From the NCBI GenBank assembly GCA_963521035.1, contig CAUQTL010000001.1, positions 25,063 to 89,062 of the forward strand: DNA of 64,000 nt. The letters are read 5' to 3'. Under the pieces are notes generated by a model. It was not told where the DNA came from and ran no database searches. It saw only the letters and a list, made by a program, of their open reading frames with translations. This document shows, piece after piece, positions 3,182 to 43,093 of the stretch. Positions within the stretch are counted from its first letter, which is position 1. Every line of letters starts with the position of its first letter. The translations under genes were made by a program, and so were the position numbers. The stretch is from an uncultured Streptococcus sp. GTDB lineage: Bacteria; Bacillota; Bacilli; Lactobacillales; Streptococcaceae.

Positions 3182-3380
3182 TAATACTCAATGAAAATCA
3201 AAGAGCAAACTAGGAAGCTAGCCGTGGGCTGCTCAAAGCACTGCTTTGAGGTTGTAGATAGAACTGACGAAGTCAGCTCAAAACACTGTTTTGAGGTTGT
3301 GGATAGAACTGACGAAGTCAGTAACCATACCTACGGTAAGGCGATGCTGACGTGGTTTGAAGAGATTTTCGAAGAGTATA
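3182..3380 (+). repeat. BOX element (boxA-boxB2-boxC)
   Basis: Starts TAATACTCAATGAAAATCAAAGAGCAAACTAGGAAG, two 45-bp boxB copies, ends GAGATTTTCGAAGAGTATA. Confidence 0.93.
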
Positions 3381-29058: not shown

Positions 29059-29080
29059 TTGTTCCCCTTTTTGCTCCCCC
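29059..29080. repeat. Putative integrase arm-type sites (left)
   Basis: Tandem TTGTTCCCC / TTGCTCCCC, echoed at the right end (43257-43289). Confidence 0.55.
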
Positions 29081-30246
29081 TATAGTGCTTTTAGTGCAGT
29101 TTCGTAGAATGATACTGCTTTTTTTGCGTTCTCTTTTGAGAGGTGGCTATATGTGTCCATGGTCATGCTGATTTGAGAGTGACCTAGACGGTGCTGGAGT
29201 TCCTTGTAAGGTATTCCAGAGTTAAGCAGTAAACTAGCGTGAGTATGACGGAAACCATGAAAACCTATATTCGGAACATCAGCGCGTTTAAAATGTGTTA
29301 GTAATCTTTTTTTAAGTTTTACAATGCTAGTATATTCATGAATGAAGTCAGAAAATACTACACTTTCACGTTGCCCTATCTTCCAAGCCTCTTTAGTTTG
29401 GCGTAGTTTGTACTGCTTCAGCATGCTAACAGTCGCTTGATCTATATCTATATCCCGATAACTAGCCTTAGATTTTGGGCTATTGATTTCTAGATCCCGA
29501 TTTAGTGTTTTGGTAATATGCACAACGGCATTATCTAAGTCTATATCAGACCAGCTAAGCGCTAGAGCCTCATTGATACGGCAACCAGTTGCCAGTAGGA
29601 ACTTATAGAGCGTTACATCATAGTAATAACGATATTTACAACTATCTAAATTATCAAGATAAACAAGAAACTTTTTTAACTCTTGATTATCAAAGTGCTT
29701 TAGCTTTTGTCGCTTTGCTTTCTGAGTGTTACGAGGTAAAACCACATCACGCGCAGGATTGGACGGTATTGCTTGCATGGTTACGCCATACTGTAAGATA
29801 CGTTTGTTTAAAGCGTGTATCATATCATAGTGTAGAAAAGCGCCCTCTTCCCCTCTATTAGCCTTATCAGCAAGTTTATTGATAATTGACTGAATAAGTG
29901 GAGTAGTGAGCTTATCGAGCTTATACTCCCCGAAAGTAGGCAATATGTGATTATCTATTAGCGCTCTAACGTTTCCTTGAGTGTTTGGCTTAACTGTATT
30001 CTTATAGCTTTCCCACCAGAGAGTTGCCAATTCTTGATAGTTTTTTATGGTAATAGCCTTTTGTCTGGTAGATCCTGCTTTTTGAAAAGCTATTTTTTCT
30101 TGATTGGCTTTCTGCTTAACTTCCTTTTGTGTCCGACCTGTTACTTTGGTTTTTACTTTCTTTCCTGTTACCTGGTCAACTCCTAGATAGACATTAGCAC
30201 GGTAAACTTTACTACCGTCTTTTTTTATAACTTCAGTTATTTTCAT
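29080..30246 (-). CDS. Tyrosine integrase
   Basis: TGCRINEALAL, HGFRHTHAS, RLGH, catalytic Y in DTYSH; transcribed toward the att site. Confidence 0.96.
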   Translation of the reverse strand: MKITEVIKKDGSKVYRANVYLGVDQVTGKKVKTKVTGRTQKEVKQKANQEKIAFQKAGSTRQKAITIKNYQELATLWWESYKNTVKPNTQGNVRALIDNHILPTFGEYKLDKLTTPLIQSIINKLADKANRGEEGAFLHYDMIHALNKRILQYGVTMQAIPSNPARDVVLPRNTQKAKRQKLKHFDNQELKKFLVYLDNLDSCKYRYYYDVTLYKFLLATGCRINEALALSWSDIDLDNAVVHITKTLNRDLEINSPKSKASYRDIDIDQATVSMLKQYKLRQTKEAWKIGQRESVVFSDFIHEYTSIVKLKKRLLTHFKRADVPNIGFHGFRHTHASLLLNSGIPYKELQHRLGHSQISMTMDTYSHLSKENAKKAVSFYETALKAL

Positions 30247-30432
30247 GATGATAAACCTTTCTAAAATACATCAGCAGGCAAGCCATTATCAAAAAGGTTT
30301 TATATCATGCTAGGGGCTACGAGATCCCCCTTATTTTCGTTTTTAAGTAGTCAGACGGTAAATAATACCAGAGTAGGAAACAAGGCGGATATGGGGCTAA
30401 TATGGGCTTGTTTATAGTAAACGGGCATGTAT

Positions 30433-31428
30433 TTAAAGTTTTTTATCGTCAGTTAGCTGTTTTAAAGTTTTTTCAAAGTCCGAGTTTATCTTTTGAGTTT
30501 TGTTGAATAGTTGGTATTCTGCTTTTGCTTTATCTTTCGCAACCTTGGAAGTGATTTTTCCATGACCTTCTAAAATATCGTATTCTTGGAAAGTCAAAAA
30601 GCGGTCAATGCTTTGGGCTAGTTGTTGCATTGTCTGAGCTTTTCGCTGTTCTATCTGTCTTTCCAGGTAATCAAAATAGCTAGATATTCCTCTTTCAAGG
30701 GAACGGATTTCTGTTTCTGAAAGGTAATTCTTTGCTATTTGGGTATCTGCTTGCAGTATGCGACCGTTAGGGGAGTTTTTCCACGTTGTAAGTCCCATGT
30801 TGTCTTTTGTATGGTCAGCTTTCGTGTAGATAATTTCCGCAGCAGTTTGGCCAGTAATTGCATAATGAAACTTATTCTGTACATCAGCATAGAATTGCTT
30901 AGTCAATGTACTTTGTGGATCATAGTCAATAGAGATTTCTGCAAAAATATCTGTAATCTGCAACCATATACGACGCTCACTAGCTCGGATAGAACGCACG
31001 CGCTCCAAGAGCTCACGGAAATAGTCTTTTTCCAGCAAGTTTTCGCCTTGTTTCAGACGGTTGTCATCCATGGCGAACCCTTTTATCATGTACTCACGAA
31101 GTACCGAAGTAGCCCACTGTCTAAATCTCGTAGCTTTTTGGGAATTGACACGATAACCAACTGAAATGATGGCGTCAAGATTGTAGTAAGTAATTAAGTA
31201 ATTCTTCCCATCGGTAGCAGTTGTTTCCATTTTGGAAATAACTGAATCTTCTTCTAATTCGCCCTCTTCAAAGATATTTTTTAGGTGTTTACTAATTGCA
31301 GGAACACCGACATCGAAAAGTCTAGCCATTTCTTTCTGACTAGCCCAGATAGTTTCGCCTTTGATGATGACACTAGCTGTCTCGCTATCGTTATCAGCGG
31401 TATAGATTAAGAATTGTAATTCGTTCAT
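30433..31428 (-). CDS. RhuM-family protein (accessory)
   Basis: ETIWASQKEMARLF, YNLDAIISVGYRVNS, FRQWATSVLREY..KGF, IRASERR; start trimmed to MNELQF after AGAAAGGA. Confidence 0.85.
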   Translation of the reverse strand: MNELQFLIYTADNDSETASVIIKGETIWASQKEMARLFDVGVPAISKHLKNIFEEGELEEDSVISKMETTATDGKNYLITYYNLDAIISVGYRVNSQKATRFRQWATSVLREYMIKGFAMDDNRLKQGENLLEKDYFRELLERVRSIRASERRIWLQITDIFAEISIDYDPQSTLTKQFYADVQNKFHYAITGQTAAEIIYTKADHTKDNMGLTTWKNSPNGRILQADTQIAKNYLSETEIRSLERGISSYFDYLERQIEQRKAQTMQQLAQSIDRFLTFQEYDILEGHGKITSKVAKDKAKAEYQLFNKTQKINSDFEKTLKQLTDDKKL

Positions 31429-31603
31429 GAAATCCTTTCTAAAATATTGTAAGTGGTTGACATTTGTTGACATCAACAAAATTAGTAGATATGGGGCTTA
31501 TATGAGCTTGAAGCTCGAACGAAGCTTGAGAATCCACGCGCTTCAGGATTGTTGAACATTGTGGCGCGTGGGTATGGTATAGGTCGCATTTTAAATGCAA
31601 GAG

Positions 31604-31694
31604 TGGTATAATGATGTTGTAAATACCTAACCTTTAGCTTATTTTCAGTTAGGTACTATTAGACAAGTTGGCAGTAGCTAGCTTGTCTTTTTTT
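31604..31694 (+). ncRNA. Putative small RNA (promoter, hairpin, terminator)
   Basis: TGGTATAAT extended -10, ACCTAAC/GTTAGGT hairpin, AGACAAG...CTTGTCT plus T-run; no ORF seen. Confidence 0.5.
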
Positions 31695-31811
31695 GTTGCT
31701 ATTTGTCAATTTTGCCCATTTTTGCGCTTTAGTTTGAAAAATCGGCTTTCTATTCTTCAATTTCCCCCGTTTTTGCACTTTAGAGAGTGGAAAGTGGAAA
31801 TTTATTTGATA

Positions 31812-32261
31812 TTAATCGTTATCTTTTTTAAATGATACTGCATCTTTCTTTGCAAATTTTTTTGCAATAGTTCTAAGTAGTTCTCTCTCATCATCTGTGC
31901 AGAAAAAGTAGTTAAGCATCAATTCTAGGGCGAATGGTTCAAGATGCTTTCTTAATTTTTCATAGTCATAAAAATCTAAATCGGTTTTTGATAATTGCAT
32001 ATAGTCAAATTCTTGCCATGAACGATACTCTCTTGGTGTTGGAATGTAACCATCAAATGGGTCTTTTTTACTATTTGTGTAATTTAGTAAGTATCCAACA
32101 CTTACCCCAAAGTAATCAGCTAATTGTTTTGCTTTTTCTGGTTTGATTTGGCTTTCTCCATTTTCCCAATTTTGAAGAGTCCGATAATGAACCCCAATAT
32201 TCTCAGCTAACTCTTTTTGAGATAGCTTTTTTTCTTGTCTTAATTCTTTCAATCTATTCAT
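31812..32261 (-). CDS. XRE-family master repressor (Stl/cI-like)
   Basis: MNRLKELRQEKKLSQKELAE...WENG HTH; divergent from cro-like gene; no S24 peptidase domain evident. Confidence 0.88.
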   Translation of the reverse strand: MNRLKELRQEKKLSQKELAENIGVHYRTLQNWENGESQIKPEKAKQLADYFGVSVGYLLNYTNSKKDPFDGYIPTPREYRSWQEFDYMQLSKTDLDFYDYEKLRKHLEPFALELMLNYFFCTDDERELLRTIAKKFAKKDAVSFKKDND

Positions 32262-32285
32262 GCTTTATCACACCTTTCACAGATG

Positions 32286-32372
32286 ATTATATACTATATC
32301 TTAGAAAAAGTACAATTTTTTTGTGCAAAAATTAAAAAAACAGTTGACAACAGAAAAAATATTGTGTATTAT
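32286..32372. promoter_or_regulatory. Divergent genetic-switch promoters
   Basis: Rightward TTGACA(32344)-17-TATTAT(32367); leftward TTGTAC-18-TATAAT (32315 to 32286). Confidence 0.75.
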
Positions 32373-32378
32373 ACAAAT

Positions 32379-32451
32379 CAAGCATAGAAAAACTGTGCAT
32401 AACCCCCTCCAACCTTTCACACTTTCAATCTATTCATGGAGGGGATTTTTT
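32379..32451 (+). ncRNA. cro-leader hairpin/attenuator with antisense copy of the repressor start region
   Basis: CCCCTCCA...TGGAGGGG stem followed by T-run; 32422-32438 identical to 32246-32262. Confidence 0.6.
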
Positions 32452-32467
32452 AGAAAGGGGGAAACCT

Positions 32468-32668
32468 ATGAGCAAACTACGAGGCTATCGGGTTATGTTA
32501 GGACTAACTCAACAACAGATGGCGGACAAGCTAAAAATTTCTTTGCAGTCATACAACAACAAAGAATTAGGTAAAACGCCATTTAACGACAAGGAACGCC
32601 TAGCGATTAAGTCAATGGTTGCAGAAGTCAAATCAGATATAACCATAGATGAACTATTTTATAGCTAG
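32468..32668 (+). CDS. Cro/Str-like HTH protein
   Basis: 66 aa XRE HTH (GLTQQQMADKLKISLQSYNNKELG), first gene of rightward operon. Confidence 0.85.
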   Translation: MSKLRGYRVMLGLTQQQMADKLKISLQSYNNKELGKTPFNDKERLAIKSMVAEVKSDITIDELFYS

Positions 32669-32683
32669 AAAGGCAGGCAAGCA

Positions 32684-33454
32684 ATGAAGAGGAACTATAC
32701 AAGGGTCATCGATGAAATGCGAACCACTCACGGGCTGAACTTGGTAGCTATTGGCCAACGGATAGGCATAGATCCCCGAACAGTTGGCAAGTGGGCACAG
32801 GGCAAACATAAGCCCAACAAGGAAAGCAGAAAAAGACTAAATCAGTTATACAGAGAGGTTAAGCAAGATATGACAACACAGCAAAAAGATTTATGTGATT
32901 TTTTTGGGAACTTCTATCCCAAAGGAGAACCACACAACAAAAAGGAAGTTTTGGAAGTTGTAACAACTCAACGATTTGGATCTAAACACTTTGATGTTTA
33001 TGGAGACATTCAAAATCCGTTATTTGTAGCGGTAGAGGTTGCTGAGATGATTGAAATCCAAAACACCACGGATTTACTAAAACGGGTAGATGATGATGAA
33101 AAGCTGACCTATGTAATATCTAGGGCAGGTCAAAAAAGAGAAATGAATATGCTGACAGAGTTCGGAGTCTATGAAGTTTTATCGCAGTCACGCAAACCAC
33201 TAGCAAAAGAGTTTAAAAAAGTGGTCAAGCACATTCTGAAAGAAATCCGACTAAATGGCTACTACATGGCTGGGGAACTGGTGGAAGAACCACAGACCAC
33301 TATAAAAGCCCCTGATACGTTGGCAGAGGCAGAGCGGTATTATATCGATACACTAGCCAAAGCCATTGCAGAGGCTCAAAATATGGACGAGAAGAGCCGT
33401 CTGACAAGCAAGTTAACCAAATTCATGCAGGAGGTAGAACCACAATGGAACTAG
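32684..33454 (+). CDS. HTH plus BRO-N antirepressor-like protein
   Basis: N-terminal HTH; PLFVAVEVA, LTEFGVYEVL, SRKPLAKEFKK, IRLNGYY BRO-N motifs. Confidence 0.82.
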   Translation: MKRNYTRVIDEMRTTHGLNLVAIGQRIGIDPRTVGKWAQGKHKPNKESRKRLNQLYREVKQDMTTQQKDLCDFFGNFYPKGEPHNKKEVLEVVTTQRFGSKHFDVYGDIQNPLFVAVEVAEMIEIQNTTDLLKRVDDDEKLTYVISRAGQKREMNMLTEFGVYEVLSQSRKPLAKEFKKVVKHILKEIRLNGYYMAGELVEEPQTTIKAPDTLAEAERYYIDTLAKAIAEAQNMDEKSRLTSKLTKFMQEVEPQWN

Positions 33455-34071
33455 TCTACATGGACGGTAAAAAAGAGCCGTATACACTGAGCAGTATTGT
33501 GGCAGAATGCACGGGATTGCAACATCACACAATCACCAAGACGATCCGCAAACATCAAGCAAGATTTGAACAGTTCGGAAAGGTTGGATTTAAAATCCAA
33601 GCTATGGAGAGTGGCCAGAATACCAAGGACTATATTTTGAATGAGCAACAAGCAACCTTGTTAGTTACATTCTTAAAGAACACCGAGCAAGTGGCCAACT
33701 TCAAAACCAACCTGGTCAAAGCATTCTTTGAAATGCGTGATGAACTTTCTAAGTTCCGTATGCAGAGGGCGCTAGAAAAGCCAAAAAGAAAAACACTGCA
33801 TGACAGTATTGAGAACTGGGAGGCAAAACCCAAGCACGCGCATAGCACCATGAACAACTTGCTACTGAAAGCAGTAACCGACAGGAACGCTAAGCAGTTA
33901 AGGGAAGAACGTGGGGGCTATAATGGCATCGATAGCTTGACAAGTGACGAGCTGGAGCAATACCAGGCATTTGAAGACATGGTCATAGCTATGATTGGCT
34001 TGAATATGAGTTACCAAGAAATCAAGGCTATGGCATTCAGAAATAAAAAAACACGCCAAAGAAGCGCGTGA
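33445..34071 (+). CDS. Rha-family phage regulatory protein
   Basis: YILNEQQATLLVTFLKNT, FKTNLVKAFFEM. Confidence 0.82.
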   Translation: MELVYMDGKKEPYTLSSIVAECTGLQHHTITKTIRKHQARFEQFGKVGFKIQAMESGQNTKDYILNEQQATLLVTFLKNTEQVANFKTNLVKAFFEMRDELSKFRMQRALEKPKRKTLHDSIENWEAKPKHAHSTMNNLLLKAVTDRNAKQLREERGGYNGIDSLTSDELEQYQAFEDMVIAMIGLNMSYQEIKAMAFRNKKTRQRSA

Positions 34072-34077
34072 TAGCAA

Positions 34078-34201
34078 CAAAAAAAGGCTTAGCAATAACC
34101 ACACCGCAGAGCCTTTCACACTAACACTAAAACGAATTTAACAAAGCAGGCAAGCTATTATCAAAGAGGTTTTAGTAAAGATTTATACCTAGATTATAGC
34201 A
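34078..34201 (-). ncRNA. Putative antisense small RNA
   Basis: Minus-strand TGCTATAAT (34201 to 34193) and terminator AAGGCT...AGCCTTTTTTT ending near 34078. Confidence 0.5.
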
Positions 34202-34204
34202 TAT

Positions 34205-34484
34205 TTAGGGCAATTTGACCATACGGAGAGCGCCAACTCTTAAAACTGGTACTTTCTCACGCTTTCAATTTGGCGACTCTGAGCGTGAAGATATCGTCTA
34301 TACGAAACAACTCAAAAAGCCCCACGCTCTCAAAACTTTGGCGAGTCTGAGCGTGAGGAACTTCATTGCAAGAAAAACTGTATAAGAAACAACCATTCAA
34401 AATCCCCACACTCGCCATCGCCCAACTTTGAGTGTGAGGATATCTAGTATAAGAAAAAAAGCATTAAAAGCTCTTAGGGCAATT
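34205..34484. repeat. Three-hairpin array bracketed by an 11-bp direct repeat
   Basis: CACGCT/CACACTC...GAGCGTG/GAGTGTG stems at 34257, 34323, 34407; TTAGGGCAATT at 34205 and 34474. Confidence 0.7.
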
Positions 34485-34512
34485 ACACAACATAGAAACA
34501 GAGGTAATAAAC

Positions 34513-34965
34513 ATGGAAGAAACAACATACGAGAATTTGACTAGACGTATAGACAGAATTAGCGCAGAAATGCTAGAAATTAGCGAAAAAAATGATCTAT
34601 TCGGACTTTCTTTGTTGGCAAATCAGATAAAGTCTATCAAAGAAGATTTACACCGCTTACTTTGGATTGAACTTCCTGAATTGAATGACAGCCATAAAAT
34701 CGAAGCACTCTCTAAAAGAACTACGGGAATGTTTTTCAACCCTGGTATTTTTGAAATGGACGCTATGCGACAAGCATTCTTTAAACGCCAAGCTAAGCAC
34801 TTTTTTGACAATGAAGCAGAGCAACAGGCGTATATAGAACATGCTGAAAAGGAGTATTTAGAGGCTACTATAACCTTAAAAGATATTCTTTTTAACTCTA
34901 AAAAAGGAACTCAAAAAGCAAATAAAAGTTGTCTTATAGAGAAGTTTGAGGAGGCAATGCAATGA
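34513..34965 (+). CDS. Hypothetical satellite protein
   Basis: GAGGT RBS, 150 aa, operon context. Confidence 0.7.
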   Translation: MEETTYENLTRRIDRISAEMLEISEKNDLFGLSLLANQIKSIKEDLHRLLWIELPELNDSHKIEALSKRTTGMFFNPGIFEMDAMRQAFFKRQAKHFFDNEAEQQAYIEHAEKEYLEATITLKDILFNSKKGTQKANKSCLIEKFEEAMQ

Positions 34966-35162
34966 CACTAGACCTAAACAATATGACACAATCAGAATTT
35001 GATGAAGTAATGGCTGAAATCAAGTCAGAACGCCCCAGCGTCTTTCAGTTTATTGCTGATTTTTTAGATAGAAAGGTAACACCCGAAGAGGTGGATGAGT
35101 TTTTGAAGATGGAGCGAACTGATCAAGTGGACTATATCAAGAATTACAAAGCGAGGGCATGA
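34962..35162 (+). CDS. Hypothetical satellite protein
   Basis: GGAGG RBS, ATGA overlap with upstream stop. Confidence 0.7.
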   Translation: MTLDLNNMTQSEFDEVMAEIKSERPSVFQFIADFLDRKVTPEEVDEFLKMERTDQVDYIKNYKARA

Positions 35163-35163
35163 C

Positions 35164-35379
35164 ATGAATGAATTAGATTTGACCAATACACAGGCGGTAA
35201 TCTGTATGGTTGTATTGATTGGCTTACTGCTTTATTTAAACCACCGAGACCGCAAAAAAAGCGCCCAATTTGAGCGAGAAAACCAACAGACGATAGAAAC
35301 ACCTAGCGAGAGTTTAAGCCCTGATTATGGGCGATATATCCAGCTTGCAGGGGTAAGAGTTTACGGAGGAATGAAATGA
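35164..35379 (+). CDS. Small single-TM satellite protein
   Basis: Hydrophobic AVICMVVLIGLLLYL segment; coupled to neighbours. Confidence 0.65.
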   Translation: MNELDLTNTQAVICMVVLIGLLLYLNHRDRKKSAQFERENQQTIETPSESLSPDYGRYIQLAGVRVYGGMK

Positions 35380-35669
35380 GTTACACAATGAATTTATACC
35401 CTGATATTGAAAAAATATCAGACGAACCTTATTTTACTAAAGATATTTTTCTAGCTACGTGTATGGACAATGCAACAAAGTTAGCTGTAACTATGGGCTT
35501 GTTGACAAAACAAACGTTGGATTTAGAGACTAAGACAGCTATTTTGAAAACCCTTGATACCATTATAGAAACTCAAAAAGATATTTTGCGAGGGGTAGCG
35601 AGCGGACAAATAACCTTTTTGAATAAAAGCAAAGGAGAGGAGGAACTGAATGAGCCTATCGGAGAATGA
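35376..35669 (+). CDS. Hypothetical satellite protein
   Basis: GGAGG RBS, ATGA overlap. Confidence 0.65.
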   Translation: MSYTMNLYPDIEKISDEPYFTKDIFLATCMDNATKLAVTMGLLTKQTLDLETKTAILKTLDTIIETQKDILRGVASGQITFLNKSKGEEELNEPIGE

Positions 35670-35991
35670 TAAGCGAGTCTTAAGACTAATAAAAGTGGGG
35701 GCTGAGAACTCCATAACAGGGGCAGAAATAAGCCTGATCACTAAGCTAGCAGAAAGAACCGTGCAAGATATTATCAGCCGTCTAATCACGCGCCATAGCG
35801 TTCCTATTGTTGGGGTTCGACACGGAACATTTAGAGGATATTTTATCCCAGCTAACAAAGAGGAGCTACTGGACGGAGCAAAAACATTTTACAATCAGAT
35901 ACGAGAAGAAGAAAAGCGCCTAGCAGTGTTGATGAATAGCGACCTAGAAAGCTACAAAGAAACCTTGAAGGGGGCGGACGAATATGTTTAG
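35650..35991 (+). CDS. Winged-HTH satellite protein
   Basis: ITGAEISLITKLAERTVQDIISRL...GYFI pattern. Confidence 0.7.
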   Translation: MSLSENDKRVLRLIKVGAENSITGAEISLITKLAERTVQDIISRLITRHSVPIVGVRHGTFRGYFIPANKEELLDGAKTFYNQIREEEKRLAVLMNSDLESYKETLKGADEYV

Positions 35992-36259
35992 CCTAAGCCG
36001 AGAAAGCGAGCAAGACCTAGCGCATGGCATTCTGGAGGTAGTGGAAAGATACCTGGAAGCGCGTGATACAGTCAAACCACGACTGACAGGTTTAATATCA
36101 GCCCAGGAAGTCATGGACGAGTTAGATATAAAATACATGACACTCCAAAAATGGGAAAAAGCAGGGCTAAGACGATACCATCCACCGCTTGAAGATACAA
36201 GAAAGGTTTACTATAAAATAACTGACATCTGGAAGTTTCTGGGGGTAGAAAATGGGTAG
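35984..36259 (+). CDS. MerR-like HTH protein (possible excisionase)
   Basis: LISAQEVMDELDIKYMTLQKWEKAGL...KVYY. Confidence 0.65.
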   Translation: MFSLSRESEQDLAHGILEVVERYLEARDTVKPRLTGLISAQEVMDELDIKYMTLQKWEKAGLRRYHPPLEDTRKVYYKITDIWKFLGVENG

Positions 36260-36398
36260 ATACATGACAGAGCCAGCTTATGCTGGTATGAAGTTAGCCA
36301 AGGAAGATAAAACCAAGGTCAGACGCCCAAAGTTGAAGCAACTCAAAGAACGGAAACAACTGAAGAAACTGAGGAAGAAACGTCGGAAAGGGAGCTGA
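36252..36398 (+). CDS. 48-aa highly basic peptide (absent from ORF track)
   Basis: MGRYMTEPAYAGMKLAKEDKTKVRRPKLKQLKERKQLKKLRKKRRKGS fills the gap; stop 1 nt before primase ATG. Confidence 0.6.
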   Translation: MGRYMTEPAYAGMKLAKEDKTKVRRPKLKQLKERKQLKKLRKKRRKGS

Positions 36399-36399
36399 T

Positions 36400-37260
36400 A
36401 TGACGATTTACGAGGCTAGAGGCTTTCAGGGTAATCTTGTCTATCCATTTGATAAAATTGAGCCGTTCCAGTACATTGAACGCTTTAAGCCTTTGGTAGT
36501 CCCTGAAGGGGCAAACATTGAAGAATTTAAACGTACACAAGCGCCTTACTGTATCAGTGGGAAAGTGACGCCAGAAAAGCATGGCAGTTACAAGCGAAAC
36601 AACTCCAGTCTAATCTATCGGGATTTGATTTTCCTTGATTATGATGATATACAGGGGACGACTGAGGGCTTTATAAAGGCTGTTTCTAGCGCTTTATTTG
36701 GCTACTCCTATATCTTATACCCAACTATTAAGCATAGCTTAGAAAAGCCCCGTTTTCGCCTTGTAGTGAAGCCTGATGATGTGATGAATGAGGCAACCTA
36801 TAAGCAGGTAGTGAAAGAGATTGCTGATAAGATTGGGCTACCCTTTGACATGGCCAGTCTAACCTGGTCACAACTCCAAGGGCTACCAGTAACAACAGGC
36901 GACCCAGAAAGTTATCAAAAGATTGTGGAGCATGGTCTAGATTATCCAGTCCCCAAGGTTGAACCAAGAGCGAAGCAAGGAACTACTGAGCTTTACAAGC
37001 CTAGAGCAAGTGGCCAGAGGTCAATGACTATGAGGATCATTGACACGCTTTTTAATGGCTTTGGAGACGAGGGAGGGCGCAACGTAGCACTGACACGCTT
37101 TGTAGGCTTACTCTTTAATAAGTGGGTTGATTGTGACCTAGAGACCGCCTATGAACTTACTAAGATAGCCAATAGCGTGACAGTTGAACCATTGCCTATT
37201 GAAGAGCTAGACCGCACTTTTAGCAGTATAGCACGGGCTGAATATAGAAAGAGAGGATAG
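36400..37260 (+). CDS. Primase-like protein with PriCT-1-type C-terminus
   Basis: LIFLDYDD, HSLEKPRFRLV, GGRNVALTRFVG, PLPIEELDRTFSS. Confidence 0.82.
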   Translation: MTIYEARGFQGNLVYPFDKIEPFQYIERFKPLVVPEGANIEEFKRTQAPYCISGKVTPEKHGSYKRNNSSLIYRDLIFLDYDDIQGTTEGFIKAVSSALFGYSYILYPTIKHSLEKPRFRLVVKPDDVMNEATYKQVVKEIADKIGLPFDMASLTWSQLQGLPVTTGDPESYQKIVEHGLDYPVPKVEPRAKQGTTELYKPRASGQRSMTMRIIDTLFNGFGDEGGRNVALTRFVGLLFNKWVDCDLETAYELTKIANSVTVEPLPIEELDRTFSSIARAEYRKRG

Positions 37261-37264
37261 AACC

Positions 37265-38920
37265 ATAGAACTAGAAGAATTAGGAAACCTAGAAAGTGAA
37301 ATCTTAGAGGCGCGTGAAAGCGAAGATAAGCACTTTAAGACTTTCAAAGGTGTTAGGGGACAGCTTATCAAAGAGTGTCAAGAAATCAAGGACAAGGCTT
37401 ATCAGCAAGCTTATGAAGAAGTTATGGCAGACAGCAAACACCTTGAAAATGTAAAGGCAGGCAGGTTGACCGAGGCCCAGCATGAAGAACTAGCCCAGCA
37501 GAAAGGCGAGGAAAAGAGCAGTAAGGCCTTACCAACTAATCCGCTGGGAGTTGCTATTATATTAAAAAAGTACGTCCGATTTATTAGAATTAAGCCAGAG
37601 GCACAAGGGCAAAAAGCCCCATTATATTTCTATAATCCTGATTTTGGTATCTGGTTAGAGGATAATGAATTTTTGCAAGATCTTATTTCTGTCATTTATC
37701 CAAACGCAACGGAAAAACAGGCATTTGATACGCTTTATAAAATAGCTAGACAGAGCCAAATGAGGGAAATCCAAGGCAATTATACTGTAATTGGGAAACA
37801 GCTATACAATGCTAAGACAGGCATTTTTGAAGAAACGACACCAGAGATTACAGCAACAAGAAAGATAAAAACAGGTTATAGCCCTGGAGCAGAAGAGCCT
37901 ATAATTAACGGCTGGAAGCCGACAGCTTGGCTTTTAGAGTTGTTTGACGGTGACAAGGAGCTTTATAACCTTGCTATCCAGATTATAAAAGCAAGCGTCA
38001 CAGGGCAGTCTTTGCAAAAAATCTTTTGGCTTTTCGGTGAAGGTGGAACAGGAAAAGGAACTTTTCAGCAGCTACTTATAAACCTAGTTGGTATGGAAAA
38101 TGTGGCAAGTTTGAAGATCACTGGTTTAACAAAAAGTCAATTTTCAACGTCTATATTATTGGGAAAGTCGCTTGTAATCGGTGATGATGTACAAAAGGAC
38201 GCAGTAATTAGAGACACTTCAGATATGTTTAGCTTAGCAACAGGCGACATAATGACCATAGAGGACAAAGGGAAACGCCCTTATAGCATACGCCTTAATA
38301 TGACGGTAGTACAATCTTCTAATGGTTTACCAAGAATGAACGGGGATAAATCAGCTATTGATAGGCGATTTAGAATTTTACCTTTTACCAAAATATTTAA
38401 AGGTAATCCTAACAAGGCTATCAAAGACGATTACATTAACCGCAAAGAAGTGCTGGAGTACCTGGTTAAGTTGGCTATTGAAACACCAATCGCTGACATT
38501 AACCCTACGAAGTCTATTGAAATACTTGAAGAACACCATAAGGACATGAACCCCGTTATTGATTTTGTTTCTAAGTTTTTTACTGATGAATTGACAAGTG
38601 AGTTTATTCCTAATAGTTTTGTCTATCACGTTTGGAAAGGTTTCCTAGAATACTATGGTATTAAAGAAAACAGGTCAGAAATGGGCTTACATCGAGAAAT
38701 CAAAAGCAACCTGCCTGAAGGTTTCGCAGTTGGCCAGAAGGTTATCCCTGCAGGGCAACAGATCCATAAAGGTTTTTATCCTAAAGAAGACCTACCGCCG
38801 TTTGCAAGCGTAGCCTATGCTAATGGTAGGGCAACACCCGAAAAGCAGAAAAAGCCAAAGAATGAACGCGGGTATTACAACCATTGGCCAGAGTACAAAA
38901 AGAGAAGGAAAAGAAAATAA
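37265..38920 (+). CDS. SF3 (D5/P4-like) helicase / Rep; possible ATA start 53 codons upstream of first ATG (37424)
   Basis: Walker A GEGGTGKG, IGDD, SSNGLP, AIDRRF. Confidence 0.85.
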   Translation: MELEELGNLESEILEARESEDKHFKTFKGVRGQLIKECQEIKDKAYQQAYEEVMADSKHLENVKAGRLTEAQHEELAQQKGEEKSSKALPTNPLGVAIILKKYVRFIRIKPEAQGQKAPLYFYNPDFGIWLEDNEFLQDLISVIYPNATEKQAFDTLYKIARQSQMREIQGNYTVIGKQLYNAKTGIFEETTPEITATRKIKTGYSPGAEEPIINGWKPTAWLLELFDGDKELYNLAIQIIKASVTGQSLQKIFWLFGEGGTGKGTFQQLLINLVGMENVASLKITGLTKSQFSTSILLGKSLVIGDDVQKDAVIRDTSDMFSLATGDIMTIEDKGKRPYSIRLNMTVVQSSNGLPRMNGDKSAIDRRFRILPFTKIFKGNPNKAIKDDYINRKEVLEYLVKLAIETPIADINPTKSIEILEEHHKDMNPVIDFVSKFFTDELTSEFIPNSFVYHVWKGFLEYYGIKENRSEMGLHREIKSNLPEGFAVGQKVIPAGQQIHKGFYPKEDLPPFASVAYANGRATPEKQKKPKNERGYYNHWPEYKKRRKRK

Positions 38921-38922
38921 GA

Positions 38923-39192
38923 ATTTTATACACTTTACACAGTAGGGCAAAAATTTTATACACTTAAAAACGTTGTCATATCAAGGGTTTTATACACTTT
39001 ATACGAAAAACACGGAAATAAAAAAATTTCCTTATATCATGTTTCAGAAATAGAGTCCCTATTATCCCTATATATATTTTTATTTTAATGTATAAAGTGT
39101 ATAAAACAATAGCAAAACCCTTGGTACTACTGACTTTATTTTTTATACACTTTTAAAAACAAGTGTATAAAATTTGTAAGAAGCGTATAAAA
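38923..39192. promoter_or_regulatory. Satellite replication origin (iterons)
   Basis: Several TTTATACACT direct and AGTGTATAAA inverted copies around an AT-rich core right after rep, as in SaPI-type origins. Confidence 0.8.
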
Positions 39193-39235
39193 AAGGGGAC
39201 AGAAAAATCAATTAAGTACAAAAGGAGTAAAAAAC

Positions 39236-39412
39236 ATGAAAATTAAACTATTTTTTTATTACAAATGGCAACAATCACTAGAAAATTTTGAACAGGAAGT
39301 AAATGATTTTATGGCGACCGTGCAGGTAATTGATGTAAAACATTCAACCGCAACCGTAGGAGATAGTGATGGTATGGGTGCGATTGCTGGTTTGCTAGTA
39401 TTATACAGATAA
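39236..39412 (+). CDS. 58-aa protein, DUF2758-like (absent from ORF track)
   Basis: AAGGAG RBS; MKIKLF...FEQEVNDFMATVQVIDVK...LVLYR. Confidence 0.7.
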   Translation: MKIKLFFYYKWQQSLENFEQEVNDFMATVQVIDVKHSTATVGDSDGMGAIAGLLVLYR

Positions 39413-39495
39413 CAAAATGGGGTAGATAGTACCGACCCCCTTGCAATGGTGTAACTACTAGTGACACCCTTAAAAACAGAAAGAGGAAAAACAAC

Positions 39496-40026
39496 ATGAC
39501 ATTAAAAACATTTTCGGATAAAGCAAAAACATTTACTTTCACTTACTATTTTTGTGATCAGGCGACCGCTCAAGTAGCAGGTCACGCGCTACTGGGATAT
39601 ATGACTGGGACATATTGCCAGCCTGTAATCTCATTGACCTACAAGGATAAAGGCACGCTAGTAGCTGAGTATGTGGAAGATCACAAGCTAAACAAGACCT
39701 TTAAGCGTATTTGTGACAGTTTTAAAGACTACCACAAACAACCAGGAGAGGTTGAAGCATTTGAAGAACGTTACAAACGGGAGCGCGTGCTTCAACTCAA
39801 AGAGTCAGAGGACTTTGAGAGCTTGCTGAATAAGATCACAGACTACGAGCTGGAACTATTAGACTATGCTGATCGCTTGCTTTCTGATACGCCTATCCCT
39901 ATGGACTCTATGACTGCTTTTGGTACGTTGGAAAAGCTAGGCGATGAAAGTATTAGCCTACTCCAAAAGTTGGACGTAGAGGGCGAATATAAAGGACTTG
40001 CTGGTTATACAGAGCATTTGAAGTAG
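39496..40026 (+). CDS. Hypothetical satellite protein
   Basis: GAGG RBS; followed by hairpin AGGGGGAGCAATCCCCTTTTT. Confidence 0.7.
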   Translation: MTLKTFSDKAKTFTFTYYFCDQATAQVAGHALLGYMTGTYCQPVISLTYKDKGTLVAEYVEDHKLNKTFKRICDSFKDYHKQPGEVEAFEERYKRERVLQLKESEDFESLLNKITDYELELLDYADRLLSDTPIPMDSMTAFGTLEKLGDESISLLQKLDVEGEYKGLAGYTEHLK

Positions 40027-40097
40027 AACACAGGGGGAGCAATCCCCTTTTTGCTATCAACCCAATAGTTTTGGGTTTTTCCATATAGGGGGAAATA

Positions 40098-40601
40098 ATG
40101 AAGCAGTTAGCAATAGAAACAATCACTAAACCAATGAAGCTGAGAGGAATATCTAAGGGTATAGCCGAGTTGGACGGTCAACGTTTAGAGATTGATTTGG
40201 ATAATTTAATGATTGATTTTGGTGGAGAGTCATTTGAATTAGACAGAATAGCAGGAACTAAGGGAGGTAATCGATATTTCTTTCTTTGCCCTGATTGTGG
40301 GAGACGGTGCAGGTTGCTTTATAAACGGTATTTATATTTTAGTTGCGGTACTTGTCTAGATATCCACAAGAGCACTCTGAACCGCAGTAAAACGGATTGC
40401 CAATACTACTGGGAGCTTGCACTAAAAGAAGCCAGAAAGGTAGAACCAGGGTGGAGTCCTAGACGTGGTAGATATATGTTTGATGGTTTCCCTGAAAGAC
40501 CAAGGTATATGAAACGTGACAGGTATCATAAGCACTATAAGAAGTTTTTGAAGTATATTGAAAAAGGGGATAGATTTTGGCTGAATGGTTCGAGATTGTA
40601 G
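40098..40601 (+). CDS. Zinc-ribbon satellite protein
   Basis: YFFLCPDCGRRCRLLY...CGTC. Confidence 0.7.
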   Translation: MKQLAIETITKPMKLRGISKGIAELDGQRLEIDLDNLMIDFGGESFELDRIAGTKGGNRYFFLCPDCGRRCRLLYKRYLYFSCGTCLDIHKSTLNRSKTDCQYYWELALKEARKVEPGWSPRRGRYMFDGFPERPRYMKRDRYHKHYKKFLKYIEKGDRFWLNGSRL

Positions 40602-40625
40602 GATAATATGAAGTAGTGTGTAATT

Positions 40626-40943
40626 TACCAAACGAACAAATACTACATATTAGACGGTTTAAATGTTAAAAAAGCTAGATATATCAAGGATTTAAGTAAG
40701 TAGAGCGTTCCAAAAAGGGTGCGGTAAACGTTCCAAAAAAGGGTGAGGTAAGGATTAGGTTATATATAAAAAGTACAAGGTTAGTACAAGGTCACATACT
40801 TCAAAATACTAAGGTTTTACAAAGGTACAGGGCTTTTTTCTAGTGATAGAACCCCAAGGTTACCACAAGGTAGAGAGGTTTACCGAGGGTTAGAAAAGGT
40901 GAGGTTTTTGTGAAGTAGTGGCAAAAAAAATACCAAACGAACA
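40626..40943. repeat. Phased direct-repeat region upstream of TerS-like gene
   Basis: CGTTCCAAAAA(A)GGGTG twice; AAGGT pairs 11 bp apart at 40777/40788, 40811/40822, 40856/40867; TACCAAACGAACA at 40626 and 40931. Confidence 0.65.
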
Positions 40944-40961
40944 CCGTAGAAAGGATGCAAT

Positions 40962-41276
40962 ATGGAACGTGATAGCCGAGGGAGATTTTTACCAGGCAAC
41001 CAAGTAGCAAAAGGCAACAGGGGCAACAGAAAGCCAAAATATGGCAATAGCAACGCTTTGAAGCATGGACTACGCAGAGGATATACTGGACTGTTACCAA
41101 GCCGAGAAGGTGGGGTATCTATATATAAAAATGGTGCATACCTTGGAACACTACCAGACAAGTATTTTAACCATTCTGAAGATGGAGCGCTTTGGGTAGA
41201 TTATAGCGCGTGTCAGTATCTTGTATTAGTTTGTGGCTTGCCTGAAAGTATGTTTAGCGAACCAGAAGAATGGTAA
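40962..41276 (+). CDS. Small protein with terminase-small-subunit-like motif
   Basis: RDSRGRFLPGN...GNSNALKHGL resembles the GNxNAxKHG motif of TerS proteins; AAAGGA RBS. Confidence 0.55.
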   Translation: MERDSRGRFLPGNQVAKGNRGNRKPKYGNSNALKHGLRRGYTGLLPSREGGVSIYKNGAYLGTLPDKYFNHSEDGALWVDYSACQYLVLVCGLPESMFSEPEEW

Positions 41277-41316
41277 GGGTCTATATACTTGAACTCCGAG
41301 CGAACGCCGAGAAAGT

Positions 41317-41805
41317 GGCTATCTCCCCCCTATCATTTATCAAGCAGATAAGCGGAGTTTTTACCCCTCTTATTTCCGATTTACTCCTTGCAGAATGACA
41401 AGCAGATAAGGACGACAATAAGCCTTCTTAATTACTTACAAAACGATAGGAAGTTAAGACGAATTTAAAAGCCCCTTATTTTCGTTTTTCTCCTTGTCAA
41501 ACGGTAACGGTAAGGAAATAAGACAGGAAATAACATCGCTTATTTTGATTTTGCTCCCTGAAAAACTGTAAGGAGATAAGGAGACTTATTAGCTTCCTTA
41601 ATTTGGATTTTCTCCTTACAAAATGATAGGGAAATAAGAACTAAAATAACTCCCCTTATTTTCCTACCAAATGACAGGGAGATAAGAGCGGTTTAAAAGT
41701 CTGTTATTTTGGATTTGTTGCTTACCAAATGATAAGCAGATAGGCAAAGAACTAACTTGCCTTAATTGCTTATCAAACCATAAGGAGATATGGGGGCTAT
41801 CTCCC
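41317..41805. repeat. Array of nine palindromic 12-8-12 units with fixed 16-bp unique spacers
   Basis: TAAGGAGATAAG-like half-sites at 41341, 41399, 41447, 41511, 41569, 41627, 41675, 41733, 41781. Confidence 0.85.
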
Positions 41806-41969
41806 TCCCCACGCGCTTCTATGAGCTTCACCCGTCATTGTACATTTTTTCTCACGGGAAAGCATTTGAAGCTAGAGCGAACATAGAGAAATAGCAAAAA
41901 AAGCCAGCACAGGGCTGACTCCTTTGTGATATTCCGATAAAAATATTATATCATAGAGGAGGCCGAGGC

Positions 41970-42389
41970 ATGACACCAGAGCAGGTAAAAGAAAAACTAG
42001 AGGGCGTTAAGTGGATAAGCAAGGAAATCAAAGGCTTATATTTGGAATTGGAGGCCCTGGAAGGTGGTATTATCAAAAAGCCAACACTAAGCCATAGCAG
42101 GGTACAGGCAAGCAGAGAGAACAAGACAGAGAACAATCTTATAAGTGTTCTAAAACTAAAAGAGGATACGCTTCAGAGGATTGAGCGACTTACTGAAGAG
42201 AGAATGGAAATATCTAGGCTGATTGATAAGTTGGTCAATCCGCTTGAGCGTTCTGTTCTAAGACTTTTTTATTTGAATAATCTTGTAGCTTTGGAAGTAG
42301 CTGAAGAAATAGGAAAATCAAGAACAAATGTATACTTAATTAGGCAAAAAGCTATAGAACACTTGAGCAAGGTGGAAGGAGCGAACTAA
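41970..42389 (+). CDS. RinA/ArpU-like late transcription activator (sigma region-4-like HTH)
   Basis: LIDKLVNPLERSVLRLFYL...VAEEIGKSRTNVYLIRQKAI. Confidence 0.72.
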   Translation: MTPEQVKEKLEGVKWISKEIKGLYLELEALEGGIIKKPTLSHSRVQASRENKTENNLISVLKLKEDTLQRIERLTEERMEISRLIDKLVNPLERSVLRLFYLNNLVALEVAEEIGKSRTNVYLIRQKAIEHLSKVEGAN

Positions 42390-42781
42390 TGGAGCTGGAT
42401 AAGTTTAAAACGATGATGAACGTCAGAGAGCGGATGACTTACTTTCTACGTTTCCAGAGGATGGCAGGAAGTGAAAACCAAGTTACGATAGATGAAGAGG
42501 CTTGGGAACTTATCTTACCTGATCAGTGGAATTTGAGCGGTGAGCATGAAAAAGCAATCCGTGAGGGATTGGAGATATTCGCCCAAGACATCAACAGCAT
42601 AGAGAACAAACGAGCCAGAAAATACTTTATTATCCATTATTGCTACATGAGGAAGAAAACAATGAGTGAATGCGTAGAGATGGCAGGTACTAGCTCCACT
42701 AGCTACCACCGATACAAACAGATAGCCGTCTTAAACTTTGCGAGAATCCACCAGAACGGAGAGCTAGAAGTGTATAAGTAG
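42389..42781 (+). CDS. ArpU-like transcriptional regulator
   Basis: C-terminal HTH GTSSTSYHRYKQIAVLNFA. Confidence 0.6.
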   Translation: MELDKFKTMMNVRERMTYFLRFQRMAGSENQVTIDEEAWELILPDQWNLSGEHEKAIREGLEIFAQDINSIENKRARKYFIIHYCYMRKKTMSECVEMAGTSSTSYHRYKQIAVLNFARIHQNGELEVYK

Positions 42782-42829
42782 GCAAATGTAGGCTGAGACT
42801 TCATATTTGCCCATTGTATAAAGATAATA

Positions 42830-42858
42830 TTGAAAAGTTTGCGAAAAAGGATTATACT
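42830..42858 (+). promoter_or_regulatory. Sigma-A promoter of small accessory gene
   Basis: TTGAAA-17-TATACT. Confidence 0.65.
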
Positions 42859-42934
42859 GAAGTTGTAGCACAAGAGAAAACTCTTGAATTATTATCTCAA
42901 GCATTCGACTTTGAATTTGGAAGGATTGAATGAT

Positions 42935-43093
42935 ATGGTTAAAAAAGATATTTATGATTGGCCAGAAGGCGAAGACGACAATCTGGATGAATTGTTAAAA
43001 AAAGCCTATGAACGAAATAAGAATAAAACTGTTGAGGAGTTAGATGCCGAATGGGATGAATTTGTCAAGAGTCTAAAACTTGAAACGATTTAA
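42935..43093 (+). CDS. 52-aa acidic accessory (moron) protein
   Basis: ATG after GGAAGGA; own promoter and terminator (43096-43124). Confidence 0.6.
   Translation: MVKKDIYDWPEGEDDNLDELLKKAYERNKNKTVEELDAEWDEFVKSLKLETI

Follow-up and report, generated by a model that had tools for sequence, protein, structure and literature searches.

A candidate antisense leader RNA in the repressor/cro switch of streptococcal satellite prophages

The CI RNA of P4 and the C4 RNA of P1/P7 are short, structured operon-leader RNAs that carry two complementary loop blocks and act in trans. P4 CI and P1 C4 maintain immunity by acting on their own operon, where each RNA and its targets share one transcript. Lambda OOP and P22 Sar are antisense RNAs within the lysis-lysogeny switch itself and are cis-encoded opposite their targets. 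Streptococcal satellite prophages and Gram-positive PICI-like elements comprise an integrase, a divergent HTH repressor and cro pair, a primase and a helicase in about 8-16 kb, without capsid or tail genes, and the repressor/cro switches of Gram-positive satellites have been described as protein-on-DNA circuits. The lambda pRE transcript antisense to cro is a further case of antisense control within the lysis-lysogeny switch (PMC13492144). AimX of the Bacillus arbitrium system is introduced as a phage non-coding RNA promoting lysis against lysogeny (PMC8612738, PMC13389391), and it is a gene of its own under AimR/AimP control, whose mechanism the former paper calls undeciphered. StxS of Shiga-toxin phages is a regulatory RNA of ~74 nt that arises by early termination after a phage lytic promoter; it is made from the late promoter, which is constitutive, associates with Hfq and has stx1 and rpoS as its targets (PMC7547250). 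As to satellites, according to PMC6813308 35% of the examined pneumococci carry one, and virulence in mice has been linked to one of them; in the main text of this paper, which deals with the Javan series, the words repressor, antisense and small RNA are absent. Supplementary figure S4 of PMC4689407 maps unannotated SpyCIM1 small RNAs, which may bear on both the expression and the novelty of the element reported here. Full-text literature searches, in which subscription papers are sparsely covered, turned up no title or abstract that describes this element.

We analyzed a DNA stretch of 64,000 nucleotides, referred to as the window. The locus at 31812-32668 forms the repressor/cro switch of a satellite prophage of streptococci. 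The ORF map of the satellite region (29080-43093) displayed an integrase gene, a RhuM-family gene, an XRE repressor gene, a cro-like gene, Bro-N and Rha genes, a primase gene and a D5-type helicase gene. Pfam returned matches to the integrase, the HTH pair, PriCT_1 and the D5-type helicase, and no capsid or tail genes among 16 scanned proteins (seven had no Pfam family, and small ORFs lay outside the scan). Furthermore, positions 32230-32480 were 100% identical over 251 nt to satellite phage Javan332, which has the same gene order and whose record leaves the leader without annotation; 62 of the 64 phage records matching this segment were streptococcal. The minus-strand ORF at 31812-32261 encodes an XRE/HTH_3 protein of 149 aa with an MNRLKELR start (Pfam HTH_3, E 5.5e-19; regulator/repressor families in PHROGs). 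Since it is divergent to cro and located upstream of the integrase gene, it presumably acts as the repressor. On the plus strand, a Cro-like HTH protein of 66 aa (32468-32668; ORF, Pfam and PHROGs) is encoded by the first gene of the lytic operon. The neighboring Bro-N antirepressor-like gene (32684-33454) specifies an additional HTH domain at its N-terminus according to Pfam and PHROGs, and the RhuM-family gene (30433-31428), situated between the repressor and integrase genes, is carried as cargo by the leftward operon. Behind the Rha gene, the gap at 34215-34430 contains three similar hairpins with GCCAAA/GCCCAA-type loops on both strands, one of which scored 41.8 bits against the Rfam family Spy779816 (gathering threshold 67, E 0.0003).

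The rightward (lytic) promoter, TTGACA-17-TATTAT on the plus strand (32344-32372), matches 11 of 12 consensus positions. As the original prediction had it, this near-consensus promoter reads into a stem followed by six T (32446-32451), a possible terminator tail, before cro. The predicted leader RNA, drawn from the promoter to the T-run with both ends predicted, covers 32379-32451 and measures about 73 nt; predicted leaders were 66-79 nt long in 88 of 99 homologs and 85-88 nt long in 11. Folding yielded a G+C stem at 32404-32444, whose 8-bp arms CCCCTCCA (32404-32411) and TGGAGGGG (32437-32444) enclose an unpaired loop of 25 nt (-14.1 kcal/mol, z -3.4, matched by 0 of 200 shuffles). Upstream of this stem-loop lies a first predicted hairpin. 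The palindrome at 32382-32398 folds as this first hairpin in silico, but its type followed the recognition helix of the repressor (RTLQN 43/44, KTISR 16/16, LTISN 13/13, ITILR 14/15, and 16/19 and 8/11 for two further helix types). It was therefore rejected as an RNA structure and is probably a repressor operator. The same pattern recurs at 32310-32326 over the leftward -35 region, where it would likewise be a repressor operator. At least five operator types, each matched with distinct repressor recognition helices, amount to a ready-made recognition code for satellite immunity groups. The leader loop stayed the same across helix types while the adjoining palindrome changed, so the loop is not the repressor operator.

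The leftward repressor promoter has a -10 hexamer TATAAT on the minus strand (32286-32291), with a predicted start near 32279-32280. The resulting mRNA leader would be 18 nt long in the window, and 16-18 nt were predicted for 175 of the 185 homologs with a recognizable hexamer. Because the end of the 8-nt Shine-Dalgarno box lay 5-7 nt from this hexamer in all 163 of 163 loci, we took the box edge as the predicted transcription start of the repressor. Two sequences of this region recur in the lytic leader. The 17-mer CTTTCAATCTATTCATG was found exactly at 32246-32262 and 32422-32438, without a third exact copy in the 64-kb window, and the 10-mer ACCTTTCACA exactly at 32272-32281 and 32412-32421. 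Both repeats, their positions and the swapped block order relative to the target agreed with the original prediction. Elsewhere in the 64 kb, just one other direct repeat of 17 nt at a distance of at most 300 nt was present (3257-3321; 20 nt, 45-nt spacing). On the repressor mRNA, read from the minus strand, the repeats define two target sites: site A, comprising the start codon and codons 2-6 (32246-32262), and site B, the Shine-Dalgarno-like box UGAAAGGU at the predicted 5' end (32272-32279). The plus-strand counterparts are block A, the anti-start-codon sequence (32422-32438), and block B, the anti-Shine-Dalgarno sequence (32412-32421, with an 8-nt core at 32412-32419). Complementarity to the Shine-Dalgarno sequence and the start codon hence resides in a predicted single-stranded loop, as in antisense sRNAs. 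Two details of the proposed pairing had to be revised: complementarity from AUG into codon 6 is exact, but the 3' arm of the stem takes up the last 2 nt of block A; and transcription is predicted for only 8 nt of the 10-mer, the outer 2 nt of which probably lie upstream of the repressor start. Predicted duplexes amounted to -21.8 kcal/mol for block A and -13.1 kcal/mol for block B, and the enclosing stem was worth -13.7. An 11-nt copy of block B plus the junction (CCTTTCACACT) at 34112-34122 overlaps the 3' arm of a 7-bp stem after Rha and may be due to chance. A minus-strand mini-ORF running through block A was dropped as a candidate, as it had no Shine-Dalgarno sequence and its ATG was absent in many homologs.

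For the homolog set, 429 sequences (428 loci and the window) were surveyed. They yielded 216 distinct divergent repressor/cro loci; a divergent pair was missing from 90, and the remainder were duplicates. The 216 loci reduced to 195 distinct target/leader pairs, 164 with long and 31 with short intergenic regions; long means at least 178 nt, a threshold set once the data were known, and relatives of the window are overrepresented in the set. We counted as a match any uninterrupted stretch of 11 nt or more over which the lytic leader can form Watson-Crick or G-U pairs with the repressor translation start. Such matches occurred in 143 of the 164 long-intergenic loci as compared to 2 of the 31 short ones. 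By Cro family, the counts were 109/125 for that of the window, 9/10 and 24/27 for two more, and 1/12, 0/10, 2/7 and 0/4 for four others. The feature therefore goes together with three divergent Cro families, and close Cro relatives were found without it. In the window's family the median duplex reached -24.1 kcal/mol versus -8.7 kcal/mol for the opposite strand. Four block orders were observed, namely B-A as in the window, A-B (L261, L280, L224), fused around one CUUUCA (L204, L256, L318) and B only (L181, L327). On the Cro tree, which is short and weakly supported, 13 gains or losses of the feature were counted, and the existence of sister elements entirely without it indicates that it is not essential to the switch. 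Seven pattern matches without a nearby repressor looked like chance hits and were discarded. Among 400 genomes of the genus, 95 gave a match with E <=0.001, many of these matches spanning the repressor 5' end only, and no close repressor homolog outside the genus was detected in 400 genomes of the order. The antisense match was present in the A909 satellite and absent from the lactococcal bIL310 and bIL312, six further named streptococcal satellites, the NZ131 satellite and the 16 non-streptococcal loci (of 26) with a divergent ORF. Both bIL310 (L455:6176-6190) and bIL312 (L456:3257-3275) display the same TGAAAGG box before the repressor start without an antisense copy, suggesting that the target box is older than the leader. 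In L384, L404 and L424, where the repressor Shine-Dalgarno sequence is different, the hairpin before cro is kept and the antisense loop is missing. MNRLKELR-type HTH genes were also noticed in the lytic regions of full-size streptococcal phages (L172, L195, L199, L200, L231; matches H73-H104). Their products are near the DNA-binding domain of the satellite repressors, have other C-termini and could be mimics, antirepressors or extra targets.

A strong stem surrounded the box in 91/112, 11/11 and 11/21 leaders of the three Cro families, compared with 3.7, 0.0 and 0.4 when flanks were shuffled; a looser stem test left 20 of 123 leaders of the window's family without an enclosing stem. Stem sequences were unrelated between the families. 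RNAalifold did not recover the stem from 40 hand-picked leaders (-0.45 kcal/mol). Since spacers of variable length misalign the arms in such an alignment, we relied on per-sequence stem tests. Rfam covariance models gave no match over 32379-32451 at E values up to 5. With regard to termination, the 8-bp G+C stem and the six T are features of an intrinsic terminator, yet the 25-nt loop is too long for a simple scan that permits loops of 3-8 nt and accordingly reported no sites. Of the 103 stemmed leaders in the window's family, 94 had five or more T in a row after the stem, as did 3/11 and 2/16 in the other two families. Termination at the hairpin of the window is thus plausible from its sequence, and uncertain in the other two families.

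The original prediction had suggested looking for covariation of leader and repressor 5' end across satellite homologs, and this was borne out for one flank of block B and not for block A as a whole. Repressors differ in the spacer between Shine-Dalgarno sequence and start codon, and the flank in the leader changes accordingly. On the spacer side of block B, the mean complementary run was 1.69 nt (59 combinations from 163 loci), whereas permutation left 0.71 nt when free and 1.06 nt within families, and 0 of 5000 permutations each attained the observed value, a count that is overstated because kin are not independent. The promoter-side flank of block B did not covary (0.52 versus 0.49 nt, 30% of permutations), and for the 45 loci of the group to which the window itself belongs, the covarying extension was 0 nt. 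Covariation confined to the transcribed side and ceasing at the predicted start favors RNA pairing over a DNA site and is our strongest argument for it. Block A exhibited no overall covariation (11.08 versus 11.05, 14% of permutations) and was conserved instead, with single compensatory cases in L028, L055 and L241. Among 46 haplotypes from 130 loci, 34 leader changes were wobble-compatible and 32 mismatching, against 5 and 20 changes in the target; C to T was the commonest change (31), a predominance that mutation bias could explain. Wobble polarity was won in 63, lost in 49 and tied in 52 comparisons. Finally, where block A was present, 85 of 98 repressors had TTG as the Leu4 codon, compared with 10 of 36 where it was absent, figures that kinship likewise inflates; a tree-based version of this test comprised only three supported pairs and had no power, and the codon bias was not taken as proof.

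From these data we consider it probable, on balance, that the lytic-promoter leader RNA blocks translation of the repressor by antisense pairing after induction. The pairing that underlies the proposed silencing in trans is supported by conservation, by stems occurring above shuffled expectation, by the one-sided covariation of the flank and by a loop that does not track the recognition helix. In the lysogen, the repressor would occupy the palindromes at 32310 and 32382, keeping the leader off while its own mRNA is translated. Induction would free both promoters, and the leader, either as a terminated RNA of ~73 nt or as the 5' UTR of a read-through cro mRNA, could then pair with site A or site B of newly made repressor mRNA. 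In consequence, the repressor pool would not be refilled and the switch would be locked. With its predicted leader of 18 nt, the repressor mRNA would have a free 5' end, which could be threaded through the loop. Blocks A and B probably bind as alternatives or on separate molecules, since the B-A order would hinder simultaneous duplexes and the shared CUUUCA of the fused type makes them mutually exclusive. As for expression, four of 23 listed runs were analyzed. Two RNA-seq contig sets showed depths of 61 and 96 over the repressor gene, ending at 32262 and 32233, whereas depth was about 3-4 over portions of cro and of the gene that follows it. These contigs, which can show neither ends nor strand, reached no part of 32379-32417, and two raw-read RNA runs yielded 0 and 2 poorly matching reads. 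High repressor and low cro depth fits a quiet lysogen and is neutral as regards the small RNA.

Several other readings of the repeats have to be weighed against antisense silencing of the repressor. The pairing might mainly act in reverse, or both ways: the 5' end of the repressor mRNA would bind the loop of the nascent leader and open its stem. The cro ribosome-binding site would then be covered by the 5' arm together with block B, or termination would change, and the repressor message itself would be an immunity RNA. The energies agree with this, as the block A duplex exceeds the stem, invades 2 bp of it and opens it in a dimer fold. When block A was bound and the 3' arm barred, a constraint imposed on the fold, the 5' arm and block B paired across the cro Shine-Dalgarno sequence (plus strand, 32452-32461). 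Moreover, the repressor RNA was the more abundant partner in the RNA runs analyzed, and the blocks of L022, L025 and L028 stand directly before the cro Shine-Dalgarno sequence without a stem. The cis pairing motif was seen in 81 of 122 leaders of the window's Cro family, but in just 6/27 and 3/9 leaders of other families, and any anti-Shine-Dalgarno box pairs with a Shine-Dalgarno sequence by default. Every architecture covers exactly the repressor initiation region, which is the usual place of a translational block, and we regard a mainly reversed or two-way pairing as rather unlikely. A more elaborate two-way RNA toggle is conceivable but doubtful on the same scale; in it, the leader would silence repressor translation, the repressor message would refold the leader onto the cro ribosome-binding site, several unrelated hairpins would serve this end, and block A would also reach the repressors of other satellites and HTH genes of helper phages.

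We find it improbable that Cro, another satellite protein or a host factor recognizes the repeats as sites in double-stranded DNA, with one copy covering the repressor start and the other located in the lytic leader. Such a site would account for the CTTTCA shared by the blocks, for the partly palindromic block A that is conserved rather than covarying, and for a G-U test without clear preference for RNA. It is hard to reconcile with one core that accompanies every repressor specificity and three divergent Cro families but is missing from close Cro relatives, with varying block order and spacing, with a leader copy placed within a stem far above chance, and with covariation that ends at the predicted transcription start. 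We favor a conserved, unannotated RNA-pairing module, as deduced from comparative sequence data, in the switch of many streptococcal satellites. This module could have its main targets elsewhere, in repressor mRNAs of other resident satellites or in MNRLKELR-type HTH genes in helper-phage lytic regions. Targeting of other elements, already raised in the original prediction, is possible by sequence, given that 59 of 111 satellite repressor starts and 5 of 24 phage-borne MNRLKELR-type genes could pair with the loop of the window in a run of 15 nt or more, and that L330 and L339 retain block A although their cognate repressor start no longer matches. However, 19 of the 24 phage-borne genes match over less than 15 nt, the flank of block B follows the cognate repressor, and no second start-site target was recognized in the window's genome, which is 80% complete; targets lying mainly elsewhere are thus very unlikely. 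Slimmer still is the prospect that the leader copy has no function and is left over from a short duplication inside an ordinary attenuator. Elements without the copy do exist in every Cro lineage, and L238, L387 and L406 carry decayed copies. Against this, the copy is kept across species while the adjoining operator and spacers are replaced, four orders occur with unrelated stems, and the flank tracks its target.

If the lytic leader does silence the repressor message, the switch would gain a positive feedback acting through RNA. Such feedback could account for the lasting commitment of an induced satellite despite continued firing of its freed repressor promoter. The element is short and comes with natural pairs with and without it as well as natural compensatory variants. 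In its predicted action the leader works like known phage antisense RNAs, and it belongs to none of the families tested. The long matches involve the divergent repressor mRNA, unlike the same-transcript targets of P4 CI and C4, and in cis just a 6-nt core faces the cro Shine-Dalgarno sequence; the predicted target thus lies on the opposite strand, the predicted effect is pro-lytic, and no Rfam match was obtained. With AimX, the leader would share the character of a phage-type RNA favoring lysis in a Gram-positive host. It differs in being the leader of a repressor-controlled lytic promoter with its target on the divergent repressor mRNA, and in having no peptide module: aimR and aimP are absent beside the leader, where the neighbors are the XRE repressor, cro, Bro-N and Rha genes. 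StxS has an origin similar to that predicted for the leader but does not target the phage repressor, which is the predicted target in our case. The antisense RNAs OOP and Sar and the pRE transcript arise from the opposite strand of the respective target, whereas the complement in the satellite leader is a rearranged copy at a separate site, about 140-176 bp distant, and would be directed from the cro side against the repressor.
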